Positions 4,487 to 60,617 of a stretch of 64,000 nt of DNA are shown here, piece after piece. The notes under the pieces were generated by a model. The model did no database searches and was not told the DNA's origin. It saw nothing but the letters and a program-made list of their open reading frames with translations. The stretch lies in sequence record PP261279.1; one strand, written 5' to 3'. The position numbers and the translations under genes were made by a program. The number at the start of each line of letters is the position of its first letter. Within the stretch, counting starts at the first letter, position 1. This stretch comes from Escherichia phage ECP2303.

Positions 4487-4720
4487 TCAACTATTTTCAA
4501 AAAATTTTTCTGCTGTGATATTCTTCCCGGTAGGGTTCGCTACTTTCAAAATTTTATCATGCACTGGACGCCCAAAAGAATAAGCGCCGTACACAGTAAA
4601 CCAATAATCGCCGTCAGGTTGTACTATTACTGCCGCATATGGTACGCCTTTTTCGTTTTTGCTGACAAAATAGATCACGTTGCCATTAATAGCCTCGGCG
4701 CGTTTAATTTGTTCCATCAT
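4487..4720 (-). CDS. hypothetical protein
   Basis: 77-aa ORF with RBS. Confidence 0.65.
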   Translation of the reverse strand: MMEQIKRAEAINGNVIYFVSKNEKGVPYAAVIVQPDGDYWFTVYGAYSFGRPVHDKILKVANPTGKNITAEKFFENS

Positions 4721-29474: not shown

Positions 29475-30841
29475 ACGTCCCCCTTTTCTGCTCTAGTTTC
29501 AAAATCTTTCCTGACTTTCTCGTCTAAGCCAGGAAAAGTTGTATTATAAAACTCTACGACTCTCGGGTCAACAATAATATCCACCTCTCTTAATGGACGC
29601 AACAAGTTTATTCCTTGTATCGTCTTAACCCGACTCAAGGCAACATACGTCATTCCGGGAGAGAAAGCTCCGTTCTTTCCGAGGTCCAGGTTGTAACAAT
29701 CTAGCGTAAGTCCTTGACTTTTATGTGATGTTACTGCGTACCCTGATTTCAAAGGGAGTTGCTCATAAGACCCGATCACAACCCTCTCTATGAACTTCTC
29801 CATCTTCCTTTCGGCAATATTGTACCTCTGGGAAGGTTTGTACTCGTTATTCTCCCACAATCTCGGCTCAATTTCAACCTGTGCCCCGTCTTCCAGCTCA
29901 ACTACTACAGATTTGGTCTTGAATTTTACCACTGTGGCGCGTGTCCCGTTGACATAGTACGGAACTTTGTGGGTAGGGTCAACATCGTTTGAGGTTATCA
30001 TAACCTTCATCCCTATCTTCAGCCTCATTTCCTGCTCCACAGGCAGTGTGGAAGGGAACTTACCTTTCATTTTACCAATGTAGGTCTTCTCTGGGGCCTT
30101 GATGGCATCATAGAAACGTCTGTTCACCTCCTCTGCTTGCTTATTGGTGGCACAGATGGTCAAGGCATCTGTTGGGACACCACCATGATAGCAACGAGTG
30201 TTAAGCTCTGCTACAACCTCTTTTATGCGACGACCTTCACGAACACAGTTCAACATTGTGGCGAAGCGAACAGATTCCTGACGGAACTGGTCTACTAAGG
30301 CTATATTGTGAAGATTAAGATCCTCCCAAGATTTTGTATAGCAACACAGATCTGTGTGGTAGAAGTTGAAGTAGGCCTCCTTCTCCATAGAAGAGACAAC
30401 TGGAGGTGCTTGGTAGAAGTCTCCAAACAATAACACCTGAATGCCTCCGAAAGGCTTGTCATTTTTCCGAAGAAAGCGGAGTTTTCTATCCATCTCTATG
30501 AACTTGTCAGCACGGATCATGGAGATTTCATCGATAATTAGGATGGTAAATGCCTTGCTTTTCAGAGGCTTTGCTGTTTTTGCCCTTATTGCTGTCCAGT
30601 CTGACTCCATGCTCACACCTGCGGCAAGATCGAAAGTTCGGTGAGCTGTTGCTCCATTAACGTTTAAAGCGGCTACCCCTGTCGGGGCAACCGTTATGCA
30701 AGAGTCTCCATACATGGACTGGATTATGTTGATAAGATATGTCTTCCCTGTTCCACCAGGTCCACTTACGAAGACATTCTCACCGCTCATGATTGCAACA
30801 AGGGCAGCATCTGTGCCTACATCGTACTGCCCTTTTTCCAT
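29471..30841 (-). CDS. dda: SF1B DNA helicase, Dda/Pif1/RecD-like
   Basis: 456 aa; Walker A GPGGTGKTY; VAPTGVAA; Walker B DEISMI; VTSHKSQGLTLD. Confidence 0.8.
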   Translation of the reverse strand: MEKGQYDVGTDAALVAIMSGENVFVSGPGGTGKTYLINIIQSMYGDSCITVAPTGVAALNVNGATAHRTFDLAAGVSMESDWTAIRAKTAKPLKSKAFTILIIDEISMIRADKFIEMDRKLRFLRKNDKPFGGIQVLLFGDFYQAPPVVSSMEKEAYFNFYHTDLCCYTKSWEDLNLHNIALVDQFRQESVRFATMLNCVREGRRIKEVVAELNTRCYHGGVPTDALTICATNKQAEEVNRRFYDAIKAPEKTYIGKMKGKFPSTLPVEQEMRLKIGMKVMITSNDVDPTHKVPYYVNGTRATVVKFKTKSVVVELEDGAQVEIEPRLWENNEYKPSQRYNIAERKMEKFIERVVIGSYEQLPLKSGYAVTSHKSQGLTLDCYNLDLGKNGAFSPGMTYVALSRVKTIQGINLLRPLREVDIIVDPRVVEFYNTTFPGLDEKVRKDFETRAEKGDV

Positions 30842-32082
30842 TACGCCTCCTCGTAGATAATGTCGATAGTGTTACCGTCGCGGTCAACCACGTACTCAAT
30901 TGGGTCGCCATCTTTGCGTGATTCTGGAGCTACTACGATTTCGTAGCGGCATGCACGGCACTTGGCACTGTTGTGTTGGTAAGGCACACTAACTACATCA
31001 GCAGGGTCAACCATAACCGTCATCACAGTTCCATAGCTCTTTGCATACTCTTTGCTGGCACAGTGCAGGCCATAAGAGCATGCAGCTTCCGGATCATCCT
31101 CTACAAAGTTACGGGGCATGGATACAAAAGCCCCCTGGTATTGTGGGACTTTACCACTGTGCCAATCCACCCACTTGTCGCCGTTAAACTGAACCCCTTT
31201 GTAGCAAATGATTCGACCATCTTCTGCAATCTGAATGTCGTTTGCCTGCATAAAATCGTAGAGCATGTTTACAGATTTTGCAGAAGGATTGCGTAGCAGG
31301 CGAACGAGGAATTTCACATAGCGGTCATCCAGTGTTCCGTCTGCATAATCTTTCTCAATTTTCTTTGCAATGGTGGATCGCATCTCTACACCGTAGTAGT
31401 AGAGCTTACCATCTTTCATGATCAGGTTGTCTGCAAGTGTGGTGAACTCATTCTTGCGTTCCAGCCAGACAAGGATTTCACCAATTGCCTCGTCATATTC
31501 CTGAACAGAGATATGTTCGAAGACTTTCTGGTAAACTTCCTCGCTTTCACTGCGGCGAATTTCAAAAATACCTTCGTTGCAGGTGATCTGGAGGAGTTCC
31601 CCGCAAATAACCACCAAAGGCTCGATGCTTCGGGTCTGTTGCTGAGACACACTGCTCACCACCTCCAGCACCGGGTCTTTGACTTCTACTAAAGGTTCTT
31701 CTGACTTGATTGCTACCCCAGTGAACCCTACACCGTGAACAACACACAGCGGATATACCACGCCCCAACGTTTAACGGAACCTTCTCCTAAATCTAAGAT
31801 CATGGCGTACTTACCGTTATCTTCCAGCCCATATCGAAATAAACGGGCCTCTTCACGGGTTTCAAAATCCTCACGGGTGTAGCAGACGCTGTCACGGTCA
31901 GGATCGAACAACTCTGGGGCACCTACTGCCAGTGTCCAGGTTGTGTTACCTTTCTCAATAGCGCATGTGAAACCCTTCTTCTCAAGCTCTGCACGGCGGT
32001 CACGTGCTTCTTTACGAGTTTTGAAATGTTCGTAGATGAAAATCATCTTGGTCTCCTTATTTGATGTTATTCTTTGTATCAA
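30841..32082 (-). CDS. hypothetical protein (possible rIIB-like partner of the upstream GHKL protein)
   Basis: 413 aa; start overlaps the end of the GHKL gene by 26 nt; rIIB assignment rests on gene order only. Confidence 0.55.
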   Translation of the reverse strand: MIQRITSNKETKMIFIYEHFKTRKEARDRRAELEKKGFTCAIEKGNTTWTLAVGAPELFDPDRDSVCYTREDFETREEARLFRYGLEDNGKYAMILDLGEGSVKRWGVVYPLCVVHGVGFTGVAIKSEEPLVEVKDPVLEVVSSVSQQQTRSIEPLVVICGELLQITCNEGIFEIRRSESEEVYQKVFEHISVQEYDEAIGEILVWLERKNEFTTLADNLIMKDGKLYYYGVEMRSTIAKKIEKDYADGTLDDRYVKFLVRLLRNPSAKSVNMLYDFMQANDIQIAEDGRIICYKGVQFNGDKWVDWHSGKVPQYQGAFVSMPRNFVEDDPEAACSYGLHCASKEYAKSYGTVMTVMVDPADVVSVPYQHNSAKCRACRYEIVVAPESRKDGDPIEYVVDRDGNTIDIIYEEA

Positions 32083-34039
32083 TCAGTTCACGGTATTCAA
32101 TCATAGCAGGAGTGTCCCAATATTTCAAGCCTACATGCTTCAAAAGTGGATATTTCTTTTCCAATCTTGCAATATAGGCCTTCCCGCACTTAACCCGGTT
32201 GGCGATTAAGATTTTGGCACGATGATTTAGCTCACCGTACTTCCACGTGGTGCTACCTTCCCACTTGTGAAAATGTGGCCGATAACTTCCAAAATCCTGC
32301 ATGGGGATAATTTTACCTAACTGTCTGTACAGGCTGTCATATGAAGTTTCATTTGCTGCGCGAGTTAGTAAGAATTTCCAAGCATCCTCTTTCAACAAAT
32401 GTTCCACATTCTTCTCTGTAACATATTGGCAATCAGGATCAGTCCAAAGCAGACGAGATTCCGACACCAGGTACAGATCTTCCCCTTCAGGAATCTGGAG
32501 TGCCGCACGCACACGGTCATAATCTTGCTGGTAGATGTTGCTCATCTGCCCTAGCCAACAACTTCCGCGTTGGATATCCCCCTCATACGGTATGCAGTGC
32601 TTAATCTTCCTGAACTCTGCCTTAGTAATACGCTCACGCCGGAAGTAACCATCCTTCTCAAGTTTTTTAACCCAATAGCCTGGTTCGTAACGGGTTTTGG
32701 TTTCACCTTTCTTCGTAGGTCGGCGTGGAAGCTCCGATAACAATTTGACCGTATCTGCAAAAAACGGATGGTGTGCCGCCTCTTTAAACTCTTTCACCAG
32801 ATCCGTGTTACGGCAATAGAAAACGTTGCGTCCGGTAATCTCGCTTAAGTAGTTACACTTATTCCGGTTATATTTGCCGTCTCCGTCGTTAAATACTAAA
32901 TAAACTCCCCGTAAGAATTCTACCTTTCCGTAGCAGGCGTAACCTATGCGGCCTTTATTTAAGCCGCCAGCGAAGATCTCGCAGTCCCCCAAATTTCCTA
33001 GCCCTGTTTCTTCCCAGCGGTCATACATAAAATTCTTACCGAAGATGTGCCCGAACACTCCACTGTTCTTCATCATCTCGCGTGCTTCTGAGGATGTTTT
33101 TGCTGTCTCCAGTTCTGCAACAACTTCTGCTCCACGAAGGCGAATGCCTTCTTTGACAAAAGCTTCCAAACGCTCTTGGAATCCACCATCGTCGTGACCT
33201 TCTATGGTCCATTCACGCCCTGGGTTAATATTGCAATCTCCGATAGGGATCTCTACACAAATTGCAGGATAATCTATTAGTGTCTCCAGGAACTTAGAAC
33301 GGTAAGGTTGGTGACCCATTACCACACGACTCTCGTCAGAGCTGGTATAACCCTTCAGGATGGTCATTTTCCAACCATCCTTCTCGTAGTGATACTGCGC
33401 CTCAACCTTGTCACCTTCCAGCATCTTACTGGTCATAGGGTCGGTAACGGTAAACGGAAACTTTGCATAGCGTAGGCATGACGCAATAGCAGTGCGATAT
33501 TTCAGGACATGCTCTTTCTTAACATGGAACTGAACTTTTACCCCGTTGTGCTCTTCAGTCTTCCGCTCGCGGATCTTGGTAACGTTTGGGATACCCTGAT
33601 CCAAGAACAATAGATATGTGCTTTCAACACCATTGTGCACACTGATAACATCGAAAGTGTCCACCATGCTGAACGGAGCCTTTGAACCAACACCTTTATT
33701 ACCTACCAGAGCGTTGCTGTTGCGCTTGGTTGACTCCCCGAGGTTCATGAAAGTGTTGCGGACCATCTCTTCTGACATGCCCAATCCAACGTCCTGCACA
33801 AAGAAGTATGGTTCAAGGTCTGTAGGGGAGTGAATGATGATCGGTACATCACCCCGTCCAGACTCAACATGAGAGTCCACAGCATTGAAGATTGGTTCAC
33901 GGCAGCTTGCCAGCACCTTATCTTCGTAAATCCCTTTAATGATTAGCCCAAAAGTCTCTTTGTTCAGAGAAATTGAGCCCCTGGTGACCTCCATATTTCC
34001 GGTTAGTACTGCTTTAGTTTCATTACTGTTTACAATCAT
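32057..34039 (-). CDS. GHKL-type ATPase domain protein (Hsp90/MutL/histidine-kinase-like fold; rIIA-like)
   Basis: 660 aa; N-box REPIFNAVDS, G1 VQDVGLGMS, G2 GNKGVGSKAPF in GHKL order and spacing. Confidence 0.6.
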   Translation of the reverse strand: MIVNSNETKAVLTGNMEVTRGSISLNKETFGLIIKGIYEDKVLASCREPIFNAVDSHVESGRGDVPIIIHSPTDLEPYFFVQDVGLGMSEEMVRNTFMNLGESTKRNSNALVGNKGVGSKAPFSMVDTFDVISVHNGVESTYLLFLDQGIPNVTKIRERKTEEHNGVKVQFHVKKEHVLKYRTAIASCLRYAKFPFTVTDPMTSKMLEGDKVEAQYHYEKDGWKMTILKGYTSSDESRVVMGHQPYRSKFLETLIDYPAICVEIPIGDCNINPGREWTIEGHDDGGFQERLEAFVKEGIRLRGAEVVAELETAKTSSEAREMMKNSGVFGHIFGKNFMYDRWEETGLGNLGDCEIFAGGLNKGRIGYACYGKVEFLRGVYLVFNDGDGKYNRNKCNYLSEITGRNVFYCRNTDLVKEFKEAAHHPFFADTVKLLSELPRRPTKKGETKTRYEPGYWVKKLEKDGYFRRERITKAEFRKIKHCIPYEGDIQRGSCWLGQMSNIYQQDYDRVRAALQIPEGEDLYLVSESRLLWTDPDCQYVTEKNVEHLLKEDAWKFLLTRAANETSYDSLYRQLGKIIPMQDFGSYRPHFHKWEGSTTWKYGELNHRAKILIANRVKCGKAYIARLEKKYPLLKHVGLKYWDTPAMIEYRELIDTKNNIK

Positions 34040-34536
34040 TTATTGCGCTCCTTGTAGTAGATATGACTCCCGAACTGAGCTGTCCTCTGCATCTTTTTTG
34101 CCCATTTCGGTCGTACTTTGGTTGTATGGTAGTGTGTTGCTCCACCTGTTATGTCCATAGCCATGTATGCAACATGGTTGTTATTATAGACCTTTAGAAG
34201 CATCTTTGCAAGACTTTTAGCGTGATCCCATGAATCTTTTTCTGTCACCTTAAAAGTTTTGCCGTGGTTTGTCCACGAAAACTGGTTAGGTTGGTAGACA
34301 ATCTTTCTTATGGTGTCTGGGTATTTGGGGTGAGATTTCCTGTTTAGGGTGGCAAACCCAGATGCCAGCATACCCATCGTGCCATCCCCTCTAGCTTCCC
34401 TGTAGATATTGCATGCTAGAATGTTTTCCTTAGTATCTGATGGCTTGCAAGTATGGTATACTTTTTGTTTTGGTGCTGCAACAACAGGCAGCGATAAAAA
34501 TGCGCTCAAAATAATAGCAAAGATCTTAATTTTCAC
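34036..34536 (-). CDS. secreted cell-wall hydrolase, SleB/CwlJ-like
   Basis: 166 aa; signal peptide MKIKIFAIILSAFLSLPVVAA; NIYREARGDG...ATLNR...YQPNQFSW matches the SleB-type signature; probable GTG start. Confidence 0.65.
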   Translation of the reverse strand: MKIKIFAIILSAFLSLPVVAAPKQKVYHTCKPSDTKENILACNIYREARGDGTMGMLASGFATLNRKSHPKYPDTIRKIVYQPNQFSWTNHGKTFKVTEKDSWDHAKSLAKMLLKVYNNNHVAYMAMDITGGATHYHTTKVRPKWAKKMQRTAQFGSHIYYKERNK

Positions 34537-34554
34537 AATAACTCCAAATAGAAA

Positions 34555-34576
34555 ATCCCCGCCGAAGCGGGGGAGG
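34555..34576 (-). terminator. terminator/attenuator hairpin
   Basis: Minus-sense cccccgcttcggcgggg followed by attttctattt; same stem-loop as 60698-60713. Confidence 0.45.
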
Positions 34577-34585
34577 TCTTAGAAA

Positions 34586-34966
34586 TTAATCGTAGTGTGC
34601 CAAAATCTCTCCATCGTTGCAAGTTCCCTCTACAAAGTTATGAAGATTCATGCACTCATCTTGATAGAAGAATTTACCGCTTTTCAGCCGTAAGCCAAAC
34701 AACTCCGCATCTCCACGATGGCAAGCCTCTACAAGTTCATAGATTTCATACGGCAACTCTCCGTCGTCATGGAAGAACCCAGCCTTATCGTTGACATAGA
34801 TGAAGAAATAATCACTGCTGTCGCAAGCGTCCAATATTTTAAACCAGATTTCATCTACATCTTTTTCTCGGATATCGATCACGCAAGTGGAGCTGCATTC
34901 GTACTCCTTCTCCGGCTCCTCGGTCAATACCACCAGGTAGTTTCCCCGCTTACCTACTTTAGCCAT
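34586..34966 (-). CDS. hypothetical protein
   Basis: 126-aa ORF. Confidence 0.6.
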   Translation of the reverse strand: MAKVGKRGNYLVVLTEEPEKEYECSSTCVIDIREKDVDEIWFKILDACDSSDYFFIYVNDKAGFFHDDGELPYEIYELVEACHRGDAELFGLRLKSGKFFYQDECMNLHNFVEGTCNDGEILAHYD

Positions 34967-34975
34967 ACAACCTCC

Positions 34976-36160
34976 TTAAGCTTTAGCCAAAATGGCGCTA
35001 AACTCTTCACCAAACTCTTTTACAATCTTCATCAGGTTTGGGTATGCTTTGATCAGCTGAGCAACGATCTTGTCACGACCTTTACCGATAAGCAAGGCAT
35101 TTCCTAAGGCATTAGGTTTCATCATCGCCATAAAGACTGAAAATACAAAATCTCGGTTCTCGTCCTTGAAGTTTTCCCAAAGGAAATCGAGAAAGTTTGC
35201 CACACAGCTAACAAGATCTTCGTCGGAGATACTTGCATTTTCCATCATATTACGAATAGCGATGCAACCTTCAGATCCAAGAATCCACAAGATGTCTGGC
35301 TGTTTAGGACCTACGTATTCTTTGCAACCTCCTGCCATAATCCGACCGATTTCCGGTAAGTTGCGTTTCTTGGTGTGGTAAGTCCAGATCTCTACCGCTG
35401 CAGTGTGACCAATAGCACCTTGCAGAAGAACACGGGCCATAGCGTCAGAAATAATACCGCTGTCAAAATCGTGCAAGATATCAGATGCAGCAACCCAAGA
35501 TCGCGGTGTGGCAAAAGATGGACAATTAATCTCAGCCATGGCCTCATAATTATCGATAGCTGATGGAACTCTTTTCAGATATCCAATTACAGAGGAGTGC
35601 ACCCCATTAAGGAATGCGTAGTCCTCAATAAACACCTCTGCATTGCTTGTAACCTCTACAATGATAAAACGGTTAGCCAGAGGGGCTTCGAGCGCCGAAA
35701 GAACCGCACCATCTGTAGAACGGTTACCAGCAGCCACAAAAACAGACCCCTTAGGGAATGCATAAGTACCGCACTTGTGGTCAAGCATAATTTGCATTGC
35801 AACCTTTTGTAGGTAGTTATCTGCATGAGTGAGCTCATCCAGAAAGATAATTCCGCTCCAGTCAGGATCCGCAGGCCAAAATTCTGGAATTGCAAACACT
35901 GTACGTGTAGTTCCATCCGCTTCTACAGGGATAGGTAGCCCAGATAAGTCGGCAGGATCTTTATCTGACAGCCGCACGTCAACAAGGTTGTCATCTCGCT
36001 CACCGAACATATTATCAGCGATCTGCTTCATCACCTGGCTTTTACCTACACCCATTGGTCCCAAAATTAGGACAGATCGGCTATGACGTTGGGCAAACTG
36101 AATAATAGCTGGCAACTCACGGACAGTGATTTGACCACTTTCGAATACGTTTCTTGACAT
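34976..36160 (-). CDS. MoxR-like AAA+ ATPase (AAA_5-type)
   Basis: 394 aa; Walker A LILGPMGVGKSQ; Walker B IIFLDELTHA; AAGNRS. Confidence 0.75.
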   Translation of the reverse strand: MSRNVFESGQITVRELPAIIQFAQRHSRSVLILGPMGVGKSQVMKQIADNMFGERDDNLVDVRLSDKDPADLSGLPIPVEADGTTRTVFAIPEFWPADPDWSGIIFLDELTHADNYLQKVAMQIMLDHKCGTYAFPKGSVFVAAGNRSTDGAVLSALEAPLANRFIIVEVTSNAEVFIEDYAFLNGVHSSVIGYLKRVPSAIDNYEAMAEINCPSFATPRSWVAASDILHDFDSGIISDAMARVLLQGAIGHTAAVEIWTYHTKKRNLPEIGRIMAGGCKEYVGPKQPDILWILGSEGCIAIRNMMENASISDEDLVSCVANFLDFLWENFKDENRDFVFSVFMAMMKPNALGNALLIGKGRDKIVAQLIKAYPNLMKIVKEFGEEFSAILAKA

Positions 36161-36429
36161 TAGTAAAAGTCCTCTACTTGTGTGTAAGTGTTTTCAAAGT
36201 TTTCCAAAACAGATATCACATCGGATCTGTCAATATCATACGTGACTCTCCAGTTGTACGCAACCCTTTCTGCTGTTGCCTCTTCTGGCGCTAGTCGTCT
36301 GCTGGCATAAAAGAGTGTTGGAGTACACTTTCTTGCTTGCCCTCTAACTTTCCCATAATAATATCTGTGAATATCTTTGTCAAAATTTAACTCTTTTTCT
36401 GCACGAAGTTCATATTGCTGGTATAACAT
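36160..36429 (-). CDS. hypothetical protein
   Basis: 89-aa ORF; ATGA overlap with the MoxR-like gene. Confidence 0.55.
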   Translation of the reverse strand: MLYQQYELRAEKELNFDKDIHRYYYGKVRGQARKCTPTLFYASRRLAPEEATAERVAYNWRVTYDIDRSDVISVLENFENTYTQVEDFY

Positions 36430-58429: not shown

Positions 58430-59115
58430 TAACCCTCCTGTCTAGTTGCGTTTACTGTAATACTTTCACAATAAATGGTTGTGGTGTCCCAATCAGGTCT
58501 TACGTCAGGAACATACAGCAAAGTAGCCAGCCCACCAACTCCGAATTGGTTTTCTTCCCACACTGATCCGAAGCCAAGAGCTGTATGGTCCCCTTCAAAA
58601 CCAAAAGCTTGCCCTTGCGATTCTGTAAGACGCAAATGACAAGGCAATGGTAGCATGTCTAAGATCTGATCGATAGACTGCAATATGTCAAAGCAAGTTT
58701 TTCTAATATTTATGTCAAATCTGAAGTTGTCTCCTTTCCACGTATCGAAATTGTCCCTTCCGAACAATTGTCGCAAGGTGGAGATGACATCTTCGCGAGT
58801 CCCACCCCTTGATGCTGCGGCCTGCTGAATAATCAGCGTGGCACGAAAATCAGCATCTGAAAGTCCATTCCTAAGAATACCAAGTTGATTACCAACTTCG
58901 TCAAGGTATCTTCCGCTAGCATTGTTAAGCAATCTTCCTTCAGCCAAACCTACCAGCATCTTATCAACATCCTCCAACCTTTTAAGGTACACGGTTAAGA
59001 ATGTGACCAAATTAACCTTCTCAGCCAGAAAATCTCCAGGCAGGTAGTCAAGACCTCCCTGAACAAAATCTGGCAGAGTGTGGATGTGGTTAACATCCGA
59101 CTTAATCTCTGCCAT
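58429..59115 (-). CDS. baseplate/tail protein
   Basis: 228 aa; ATGA overlap with the downstream gene. Confidence 0.6.
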   Translation of the reverse strand: MAEIKSDVNHIHTLPDFVQGGLDYLPGDFLAEKVNLVTFLTVYLKRLEDVDKMLVGLAEGRLLNNASGRYLDEVGNQLGILRNGLSDADFRATLIIQQAAASRGGTREDVISTLRQLFGRDNFDTWKGDNFRFDINIRKTCFDILQSIDQILDMLPLPCHLRLTESQGQAFGFEGDHTALGFGSVWEENQFGVGGLATLLYVPDVRPDWDTTTIYCESITVNATRQEG

Positions 59116-59126
59116 ATCTCGCCGCC

Positions 59127-60617
59127 TTAAATAGTTTGTTGGAAAGTTATATTACTTTCGTCGAGGTCAAACACCTCGGTCATGTTCGCAACAATATCGT
59201 TTGTAGTGTAAGCTTCATCAGAAGCTCCTACTGGTTTAACTTGAATTACCAGTCTATTAAATCTGCCTATTGACACAGCAGCAGATGCAGCACCGACCAA
59301 TTGGATATTATACAACGTATCTGCAACATCCAGTCCGTTAACAACCTGTAAAAGAGCCTCTACAATGGCATCTTTTTCGGTTGTGGAAAGCGCAGCACCA
59401 GAGTAGGTAATTCTTACATCCAGGCGGTAGGTATTTGCCTTGGAGTAATAAATTCTTTCAGTTTGACCGTCAGATGTAGTGACATCGTAGAAAATATTAC
59501 CATAAGTCCTGTTCGTACAGGCTATAGTTTGGTAAAGTGCTTGGCAAATGTCCTCCGTTGCACCACCAAACACAACCACTTGGAACTTGTAAGGAGGTAT
59601 ACCTTTAGCATCAGTTTTATCGGTGTTGTTGGAGAACACTCTCACTTTCTCAACACCTTTCACCTCGCTTACAGCGCTAAGGATTGCAGGACGGGTAGCC
59701 TTAGATGTTAACTGTTTTGTGCTGGAAGCTCTTAAGCGATACTCTGAGTCTTTCTCAACATCTCTGCCCTCATTGAATCTTTCTCGGTTGGTAAGTTTGA
59801 TAAATCCACTAGGGGTAGGTGACATTGTTGTCACGGTTTCTGCCTCTCTTGACAGCTCACCAGCCTCGTTAGCGATAACATCCAGGGTGATAGTTCTTTC
59901 TCCTACAATCGGGGATACTCTGAAATCTACCCTGCTATTAAGTCCAACTTGATCAAGATTCGAATTGTACCCTATCCACAACGTTCCTGTCAACATATCG
60001 ATCTGAATCAAATCGTCGTTCAACAGGGTTGTATTATCGACAATGAACTGCTTAATCTCTCCGTAAAAGCTTGGCAGATCAGAGGAGTCCAGAGCCTTAT
60101 CTGTTAAAACCAGACTTTTTGTTTTGATACTTCCGTCTGTCTGGTTGGTAATTTGAAAGTTGTATTTCCCAATTCTTAGGTCTGGAGCGTTTATTCTGTG
60201 AGCAATAAGATTTCCAGCCACCTGCACATCGTTGCTAAGAACAAAGTTGCCACTGTCCAGCGTATAAGTTTTGGAATCATAAATCATATTGTACGGCACA
60301 GTTGTGTTGATTGTCAACTGGCAGGTACCTGATGATTTAGAACGGCCTCTTCGGTAAATACCCTGCCTTCCAAGAAGCTCATCCAGGTAAATACCTTCTG
60401 CCCCATACAGCGTCTGTGATGCGTATACAGATGCTGCCATAAGAATAAGTTGATATTCTCGCTCGTTGAAAATAGTGGTCAGCTTATCTGCAACTGAGTT
60501 ACTCTGTACGTTGAAGTTTTCGCCAAAAGCACGGATCAGGCTTTGCTTAGTTTCAACGATTAGGTCATTTAGGGTTGGTATAACGAAACCAGCCTCTGTC
60601 AATCCATACTTAGCCAC
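59127..60617 (-). CDS. baseplate protein (Baseplate-J-like N-terminal pattern)
   Basis: 496 aa; N-terminal region resembles the pattern of gpJ/gp47-type baseplate proteins, from memory only. Confidence 0.55.
   Translation of the reverse strand: MAKYGLTEAGFVIPTLNDLIVETKQSLIRAFGENFNVQSNSVADKLTTIFNEREYQLILMAASVYASQTLYGAEGIYLDELLGRQGIYRRGRSKSSGTCQLTINTTVPYNMIYDSKTYTLDSGNFVLSNDVQVAGNLIAHRINAPDLRIGKYNFQITNQTDGSIKTKSLVLTDKALDSSDLPSFYGEIKQFIVDNTTLLNDDLIQIDMLTGTLWIGYNSNLDQVGLNSRVDFRVSPIVGERTITLDVIANEAGELSREAETVTTMSPTPSGFIKLTNRERFNEGRDVEKDSEYRLRASSTKQLTSKATRPAILSAVSEVKGVEKVRVFSNNTDKTDAKGIPPYKFQVVVFGGATEDICQALYQTIACTNRTYGNIFYDVTTSDGQTERIYYSKANTYRLDVRITYSGAALSTTEKDAIVEALLQVVNGLDVADTLYNIQLVGAASAAVSIGRFNRLVIQVKPVGASDEAYTTNDIVANMTEVFDLDESNITFQQTI

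Follow-up and report, generated by a model that had tools for sequence, protein, structure and literature searches.

A dispensable SleB-like protein with an export signal, encoded beside rIIA and rIIB in Vequintavirus, is probably an accessory muralytic enzyme

The closest described relatives of the gene studied here are ORF2 (gp2) of Escherichia phage rV5, labelled 'SleB' already in the original 2006 record, and bas54_0065 of the Vequintavirus Bas54. A signal peptide, conservation across all Vequintavirinae genera, toxicity and a possible holin neighbour were published in 2020 (PMC7344957), the homologue with a signal peptide and reported toxicity on expression in E. coli being CB7_83 (Buttimer et al.; PMC7344957). 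The lysis enzyme has been placed elsewhere in the genome: rV5 gp89 was called 'an obvious lysin' and gp129 was proposed as the holin (PMC3606486), and LysECP26, the ORF89 homologue of the rV5-like phage ECP26, has 62% identity to lambda lysozyme and, when purified, lyses outer-membrane-permeabilised Gram-negative cells (PMC9728275). We analysed a window of 64,000 nucleotides from Escherichia phage ECP2303 (PP261279.1), in which the orthologue of these genes, a sleB-like coding sequence, lies at 34036..34536 on the minus strand and encodes 166 residues from a GTG start. We refer to its product as gp2 and read it as an exported, dispensable accessory muralytic enzyme, which is the best explanation of the evidence as a whole and, in our judgement, probably the right one. 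The gene is already known, annotated since 2006, and its dispensability is readable from supplementary data of 2025; we contribute a hairpin upstream of sleB whose position is conserved, the coupling to rIIA, a holin-like neighbour that has been lost, a three-way split in the architecture of related phage proteins, and the link to essentiality data.

The open reading frame (ORF) at 34036..34536 is a true gene, far beyond a chance ORF. A ribosome-binding site (GGAG, 34542..34545, minus strand) lies 5 nt 5′ of the GTG, and the region matches Escherichia phage ECP2309 (PP464953.1, genus Vequintavirus) at 100% identity, whose GenBank annotation gives the same coordinates for the gene (ECP2309 coordinate = window coordinate + 459). 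The gp2 proteins of rV5 and of the window and ECP2309 are identical, their genes differing by two synonymous changes only; Bas54, which is Escherichia phage MaxBurger (MZ501093.1), has a sleB gene 98.0% identical to that of the window, and 115 rV5-like phage records carry the gene at 96-100% nucleotide identity. Homologues were counted in 1,265 phage genomes in all. The ratio of nonsynonymous to synonymous substitution rates is about 0.06 for the homologues of the sister-genus pair KB57 and 4MG, and this low value, with the rV5/ECP2309 protein identity, indicates that the gene is still functional. Sixteen unannotated 'Campylobacter phage' records (MG065635-MG065682) have 98-99% identity to E. 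coli rV5-like phages across the region and are probably mislabelled or contaminant genomes. Database names for the gene vary among 'SleB', 'cell wall hydrolase', 'endolysin' and 'hypothetical protein'. The label 'endolysin', used in many records including this phage's own and RefSeq rV5, is misleading for enzybiotic mining, the real endolysin being another gene.

By sequence and modelled fold, gp2 belongs to the SleB/CwlJ (Hydrolase_2) family, as a small protein with this one domain. The Pfam profile Hydrolase_2 (PF07486), which describes the catalytic domain of SleB/CwlJ under the title 'cell wall hydrolase', matched residues 51-161 (34054..34386, minus strand), covering 2-100 of its 100 positions and scoring 70.4 bits where the cut-off is 27 (E = 2.1e-19), and PHROG 938, 'endolysin', matched with E = 1.7e-27. 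A sequence search of the PDB with gp2 gave no match besides the SleB catalytic domains 4F55 and 4FET (Bacillus cereus, B. anthracis), deposited under the name 'germination-specific lytic transglycosylase SleB'. An AlphaFold2 model built with 58 homologues as input (mean predicted local distance difference test score 95.9, predicted TM score 0.86) has a folded domain at about residues 28-166, and Foldseek matched this model to the same two PDB entries only (probability 1.00, TM score 0.75-0.79 relative to target; the next match had E > 2). Among predicted viral structures, it matched many phage 'SleB' and 'cell wall hydrolase' proteins. The predicted catalytic Glu is E47 (codon 34396..34398, minus strand), in the motif Y45-R-E47-A-R49-G, and aligns to the first Glu of YGESRGE in Bacillus SleB. 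In the alignment of 58 sequences Y45, E47 (58/58), R66 and W145 are invariant, and R49, Q85, F86, S87, H158 and Y161 nearly so.

Orthology to the spore enzyme was ruled out: gp2 scored 48.3 bits with the spore SleB equivalog model (NCBIfam TIGR02869) against a cut-off of 236.5, aligning to model positions 83-201 only, and it has no N-terminal peptidoglycan-binding domain, Hydrolase_2 being the only Pfam match and residues 1-27 consisting of the signal peptide and a short linker. The E. coli host, moreover, has no spore cortex and no muramic-delta-lactam. The predicted mature protein (residues 21-166, 146 residues) would be basic (16.9 kDa, isoelectric point about 10) with two cysteines. One of two alternative Cys pairs, C30 + C42 (as in gp2) or C39 with a Cys near 78, is present in 53/58 homologues, and such conserved pairs would fit oxidised periplasmic enzymes.

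The N-terminus of gp2 has the layout of a Sec signal peptide, predicted at residues 1-20 (34477..34536, minus strand). An n-region with two Lys (MKIK) is followed by a short, strongly hydrophobic h-region (IFAIILSAFLSL, 12 residues, of which 8 are I, L or F) and a c-region (PVVA) that runs on into AP, with V18 at -3 and A20 at -1 of a predicted signal peptidase I cut between A20 and A21. By sequence rules, the tripartite signal, the small residues at -3 and -1 and the missing lipobox mark gp2 as a predicted Sec-exported signal peptidase I substrate. A lipoprotein was ruled out, no Cys preceding residue 30, and a signal-arrest-release (SAR) endolysin was ruled out by the composition of the h-region, which is not rich in Gly, Ala or Ser, together with the AXA-type site downstream of it.

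Export signals are common among the homologues. An exhaustive HMMER search with gp2 returned 11,334 representative proteins at E <= 0.001; we examined the best 150 of these 11,334 together with 10 from a word-indexed protein search, and a simple hydropathy and lipobox heuristic assigned an N-terminal export signal to 137 of the 160 (128 signal or anchor, 9 lipoprotein-like). AXA-type signals occur in the homologues of KB57, 4MG, CR9, T5-like phages, ALITA and anhysbys, and in homologues from Vequintavirinae, Stephanstirmvirinae and T5-like phages, with diverged sequences and the same architecture. The signals end in ...TTPVLA|KDNA in Mydovirus and Seunavirus, ...ATALA|KDNA in Certrevirus, ...SSQA|SHDA in T5-like phages and ...PVVAQA|EAAN in phi92-like phages. 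The homologues of the Pseudomonas phages PAK_P1, Ab03 and Cassandra have an Ala/Ser/Leu-rich N-terminus with no cleavage site, which resembles a signal anchor or SAR domain.

The lysis genes proper lie elsewhere. We take rV5 ORF89 (gp89) to be clearly related to lambda R; it has 156 residues and no signal or SAR segment. ORF66 and ORF67, which lie beside the terminase, show the characters of an o-spanin lipoprotein and an i-spanin (spanins were likewise recognised in PMC7344957). All of these, and gp129, fall outside the window, the lysozyme gene being about 70 kb from sleB in rV5 coordinates. No holin or spanin gene adjoins sleB in the window: its neighbours are ORF3 and a MoxR-type gene upstream and rIIA and rIIB downstream.

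Essentiality can be read from a saturated transposon map of Bas54 (HIDEN-SEQ 2025 preprint, doi 10.1101/2025.11.20.689424). There, bas54_0065, a 'putative cell wall hydrolase' at 58858-59358 between a 381-bp ORF and rIIA, was disrupted at 32 of 36 TA sites with a mean read count of 916, above its neighbours, and was classed as non-essential, as were rIIA, rIIB and the 'putative holin' bas54_0115 (doi 10.1101/2025.11.20.689424). By comparison, the lambda-R-like endolysin gene bas54_0202 (471 bp) took zero insertions at 24 sites, and the i- and o-spanin genes bas54_0001 and bas54_0002 took none (doi 10.1101/2025.11.20.689424). We checked the orthology of bas54_0065 to the window gene, and in this published dataset the orthologue was freely disrupted. 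Because the Bas54 sleB tolerates insertions while the endolysin and spanin genes take none, gp2 is not the lysis endolysin: it is neither required for lysis nor able to replace the lambda-R-like endolysin under laboratory conditions. If bas54_0115 is the counterpart of rV5 gp129 (rV5 94058-94294), as we assume, then the true holin of rV5-like phages would be a different gene.

The gene lies in a long minus-strand array that reads, in the direction of transcription, fucosyltransferase-like gene, four small ORFs, ORF5, MoxR-type ATPase, ORF3, sleB, rIIA, rIIB, helicase, methyltransferase, primase-helicase and DNA polymerase. ORF3 (126 residues) and the MoxR-type AAA ATPase together occupy 34586..36160, the latter, two genes upstream of sleB, at 34976-36160 and orthologous to bas54_0063. 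Directly downstream, rIIA (32057..34039; PHROG 612, E = 2e-123; GHKL ATPase domain) is probably co-transcribed with sleB, and it is followed by rIIB (30841..32082; PHROG 609, E = 1e-61; GenBank start at window position 32046), then by the helicase and replication genes. The rV5 genes 10-1-238-164 have been treated as one transcription unit with sigma-70-type promoters (PMC3606486), and it is reasonable, from position, to place sleB in the early region. The sequence-only reading of the window had put a SleB/CwlJ-type hydrolase with a cleavable-looking signal peptide here, among early genes, outside any lysis cassette and with no holin or spanin recognised nearby, and that description holds: the domain, fold and E47 bear out the family, and the unit that sleB shares with rIIA, rIIB, helicase, primase and DNA polymerase (PMC3606486) bears out the setting.

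The sleB stop and the rIIA start overlap as ATGA (34036..34039, minus strand), and the same 4-nt overlap is found in rV5 and Bas54. Because of this stop/start overlap, sleB is probably translationally coupled to rIIA. Between ORF3 and sleB, a terminator scan found a hairpin (34547..34572, minus strand) of six G-C pairs, CCCCGC-UUCG-GCGGGG, followed by the U-rich tail AUUUUCUAUU (fold -20.9 kcal/mol, z = -3.4). A GC hairpin stands at the matching position upstream of sleB homologues in eight other phages of unrelated genera, among them KB57, 4MG, CR9, ALITA, anhysbys, PAK_P1 and IME-SM1, and 5 of 9 sleB homologues start with GTG or TTG. We found no sigma-70-like promoter site from the hairpin to the sleB start codon. 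The nearest strong sigma-70-type promoter upstream, TTGACA-17-TATTAT at 36355..36383 (minus strand), corresponds to 'P4' of rV5 and amounts to no more than a match to the consensus; the region as a whole holds 19 promoter-like sites against 17.3 +/- 4.2 in shuffled sequence, i.e., no excess. From a P4-type promoter sleB is reachable only through read-through of the hairpin. The conserved hairpin and weak start codons suggest that expression of sleB is deliberately kept low.

Three further features of this neighbourhood were seen. An antisense ORF (33939-34160, plus strand, 73 residues, two hydrophobic segments) crosses the sleB/rIIA junction; expression signals are not evident for it, and it probably arises as a side effect of conservation on the coding strand. 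A weak match to the peptidoglycan-binding SPOR domain, 19.2 bits (E = 0.0015) and so under the 21-bit cut-off, lies at the rIIB N-terminus (about 31921-32025, minus strand), where two short repeats are visible by eye; it is a curiosity beside the gene for a wall hydrolase. An ORF of 89 residues at 36160-36429 (minus strand) is called 'ATPase' in ECP2309 and PHROG 13164 although Pfam finds no domain in it; the name was apparently copied from the MoxR gene next to it.

We propose the following course of events. The sleB gene would be transcribed with rIIA and rIIB from the replication-gene (early or middle) unit by read-through of the hairpin, and its expression would probably be held low by the hairpin and the weak GTG start. 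The gp2 preprotein would be exported by Sec and cut after A20 by signal peptidase I, and the basic mature protein would be periplasmic, where a C30-C42 disulfide may stabilise it. There it would cleave MurNAc-GlcNAc (N-acetylmuramic acid-N-acetylglucosamine) bonds with E47 as the catalytic acid, most likely, by analogy with Bacillus SleB, as a lytic transglycosylase; we prefer this to the older 'amidase' label because it is the current assignment of Bacillus SleB (title of 4FET). Lysis itself depends on the cytoplasmic lambda-R-like gp89 together with the spanins. Gp2 may nick or remodel the sacculus from its periplasmic side before the membrane is breached, and so help to break down the envelope only in certain hosts or states of growth. 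Such an auxiliary, condition-dependent role in breaking or remodelling the sacculus is the one we favour, tentatively and with less assurance than the account of gp2 as a whole. What the data show is the family and fold of gp2, its catalytic motif and export signal, the linkage of its gene and its dispensability; signal cleavage, chemistry, low expression, timing and role are deduced.

Several points weigh against this account. We know of no enzymology for any phage member of the family that bears a signal peptide; the bond specificity is borrowed from a Bacillus SleB of about 24% identity, and several phage papers say amidase. An active exported muralytic enzyme should harm the cell before lysis, and a mechanism that would control it is not known. 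Non-essentiality on E. coli K-12 in LB medium is uninformative on the purpose of gp2, and in the one clinical-isolate comparison available to us from the Bas54 dataset bas54_0065 had no conditional requirement (log2 fold change -0.88, q = 1; doi 10.1101/2025.11.20.689424). The cleavage site was read from the -3/-1 rule and not with a trained predictor, the toxicity of CB7_83 was given as 'data not shown' (PMC7344957), and a literature search found no infection transcriptome of a Vequintavirus, so that 'early' and 'low expression' are terms we infer from the layout of the locus.

An alternative is that gp2 acts early in the periplasm in a conditional or counter-defence role apart from lysis, e.g., in superinfection exclusion (which the sequence-only reading had also raised), on modified or stationary-phase walls, or against an envelope-linked defence. 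The neighbours of sleB are conditional, non-essential genes: in the part of the dataset at hand, bas54_0063 (MoxR) was strongly required in a clinical isolate, as an anti-defence gene against the predicted system DS-28 (doi 10.1101/2025.11.20.689424), and in EdH4, also a Vequintavirus, rIIA/rIIB knock-down has an effect only in RexAB-expressing cells (PMC11879866). The sleB gene is itself non-essential yet strongly conserved, and large virulent phages that are unrelated to one another also encode exported or anchored Hydrolase_2 proteins among their replication genes and at a distance from those for lysis. Against this stand the want of any known phenotype, the clinical-isolate comparison just cited, the lack of a specific target indicated by the sequence, and the weakness of any argument from neighbours within a long co-directional gene array. 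We consider this alternative rather unlikely, though a rival to be taken seriously.

The recurrence has some breadth. Phage Hydrolase_2 domains were seen in three arrangements: as the endolysin of a lysis cassette, as a domain of a virion protein, and as a small exported or anchored protein. The third arrangement, among replication or early genes, was found in Vequintavirinae, phi92-like and T5-like phages, Pakpunavirus, Nankokuvirus, Vibrio phage helene and the jumbo phage Cassandra, and in the lineages checked for it (rV5-like, T5-like, Phapecoctavirus) a separate endolysin is present alongside. A 'second endolysin far from the holin' in T5-like and Phapecoctavirus genomes had already been remarked on by others. 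For the T5 sleB homologue the CRISPRi-ART supplements hold no fitness data, and a second transposon preprint makes no mention of these phages. One could imagine that exported or anchored Hydrolase_2 proteins form a distinct accessory class, widely conserved among the large virulent phages that infect Gram-negative bacteria (Vequintavirinae, phi92-like, T5-like, Pakpunavirus, Nankokuvirus and some jumbo phages, with essentiality data from Bas54 only), acting in the periplasm before lysis and conditionally, and forming one envelope module with rIIA and rIIB in rV5-like phages; we regard this generalisation as somewhat unlikely. If true, the class would be of use only in some conditions, for instance in superinfection exclusion, in counter-defence, or in growth on hosts with altered or non-growing walls. 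The matter bears on phage therapy, since a conserved, exported and dispensable wall-cutter recurs in therapeutic phage families (rV5-like, T5-like, phi92-like, PAK_P1-like), and a defined conditional phenotype for gp2 would extend the list of phage envelope functions.

The sequence-only reading had also suggested a secreted endolysin. On this view gp2 would itself lyse the host, waiting in the periplasm until a holin or pinholin abolishes the membrane potential and thereby switches it on. Lys44 of Oenococcus phage fOg44 and the SAR endolysins are the models for such an enzyme. Hydrolase_2 does serve as an endolysin elsewhere, PHROG 938 carries that label, and a holin-like gene of 51-65 codons with two transmembrane segments directly follows sleB in 4MG, KB57 and CB7 (for CB7 according to PMC7344957). 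The free disruption of sleB in Bas54, where the lambda-R-like endolysin and the spanins are essential, largely refutes gp2 as the main lysis route, the separate gp89 having a homologue of demonstrated lytic activity in LysECP26. The endolysin precedent is Pseudomonas phage Ab31, in which a Q antiterminator and a three-transmembrane holin precede the Hydrolase_2 gene (ORF65), with an Rz-like spanin nearby; its product has no signal peptide and a different architecture. We consider it very unlikely that gp2 is the enzyme of host lysis.

The holin-like neighbour is itself not found at this locus. Seunavirus (4MG) and Mydovirus (KB57) have a two-transmembrane holin-like ORF of 51-57 residues between sleB and the genes rIIA, rIIB and helicase that follow in that order, the ORF lying at 4536-4709 of 4MG locus L008 (4MG_271) and at about 4533-4690 of KB57 locus L004, where it is unannotated. 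In CB7 (Certrevirus), where rIIA and rIIB are missing, the gene after sleB encodes a small membrane protein that was put forward as a class II holin (PMC7344957); CR9 has a 61-residue ORF downstream of sleB without a hydrophobic segment. Searches of rV5 and ECP2309 by tblastn for homologues of the 4MG and KB57 holin-like protein gave nothing better than E = 0.1, which counts further against a secreted endolysin, and we conclude that the neighbour has been lost in Vequintavirus.

It is likewise highly improbable that gp2 is a catalytically inactive peptidoglycan-binding protein. The activity of gp2 itself has never been measured, which leaves room for this view; the invariance of the catalytic Glu and of the Y-x-E-A-R-G motif as a whole, the superposition of the model on active SleB domains and the toxicity reported for an expressed homologue (PMC7344957) all speak for an enzyme.

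That gp2 is a virion-associated lysin opening the wall at DNA injection, the entry role of the sequence-only reading, is scarcely credible: Hydrolase_2 does occur inside internal virion proteins of about 1100 residues in some Autographiviridae (Rhizobium phage RHph_TM34, Atu_ph03, Palo), but gp2 is small, has a Sec signal peptide, is encoded in the replication-gene unit and not the structural unit, goes unmentioned where the rV5 paper names virion proteins in its text, has a non-essential orthologue in Bas54, and belongs to a phage with baseplate lysozyme-like proteins of its own (PMC7344957; bas54_0023). The RHph_TM34 virion protein gene extends from 1278 to beyond 4405 of locus L019, and Atu_ph03 and Palo were found as BFVD matches. 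T7 gp16 carries a transglycosylase domain at the place matching the SleB-like domain of these proteins.

Having set these alternatives aside, we return to gp2 as an exported accessory enzyme and compare it with known systems. The genes of rV5 (gp2) and Bas54 are the same gene as that of the window, agreeing in length, in the 4-nt overlap with rIIA and in their neighbours (MoxR, ORF3, rIIA, rIIB, helicase); the rV5 record shows no difference of substance and lacks an annotation of the upstream hairpin. The homologues in Certrevirus (CB7_83, CR3_087, CR9_095), KB57 and 4MG are about 50% identical to gp2 and share its size, its domain, an AXA signal peptide and a hairpin upstream of the gene. In 4MG, KB57 and CB7 the holin-like gene comes after sleB, unlike in rV5 and ECP2309, and Certrevirus also differs in being without rIIA and rIIB. 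The 'SleB' proteins of T5-like phages (AKFV33 ORF81, T5_ev219) and of phi92-like phages (Stephanstirmvirinae) resemble gp2 in combining a signal peptide with Hydrolase_2 far from the holin-linked endolysin; they differ in having only 34-41% identity to it and in not adjoining rIIA/rIIB.

More distant systems resemble gp2 in part. Ab31 ORF65 has the catalytic domain and motif (WGEARGE) of gp2, but has no signal peptide and sits in a lambdoid lysis cassette. The catalytic domain of Bacillus SleB (4F55, 4FET) has the fold and the catalytic Glu motif in common with gp2, at 23-24% identity only, and gp2 is without the N-terminal peptidoglycan-binding domain of the spore enzyme. The endolysins with a signal peptide or SAR domain (fOg44 Lys44, P1 Lyz, phage 21 R) resemble gp2 in reaching the periplasm through Sec without a holin hole; they are reportedly the lysis endolysins of their own phages, and their folds are said to differ from that of gp2. 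SAR endolysins have a releasable anchor rich in Gly, Ala and Ser, whereas gp2 has a short hydrophobic h-region followed by an AXA site and, judging from Bas54, is dispensable.

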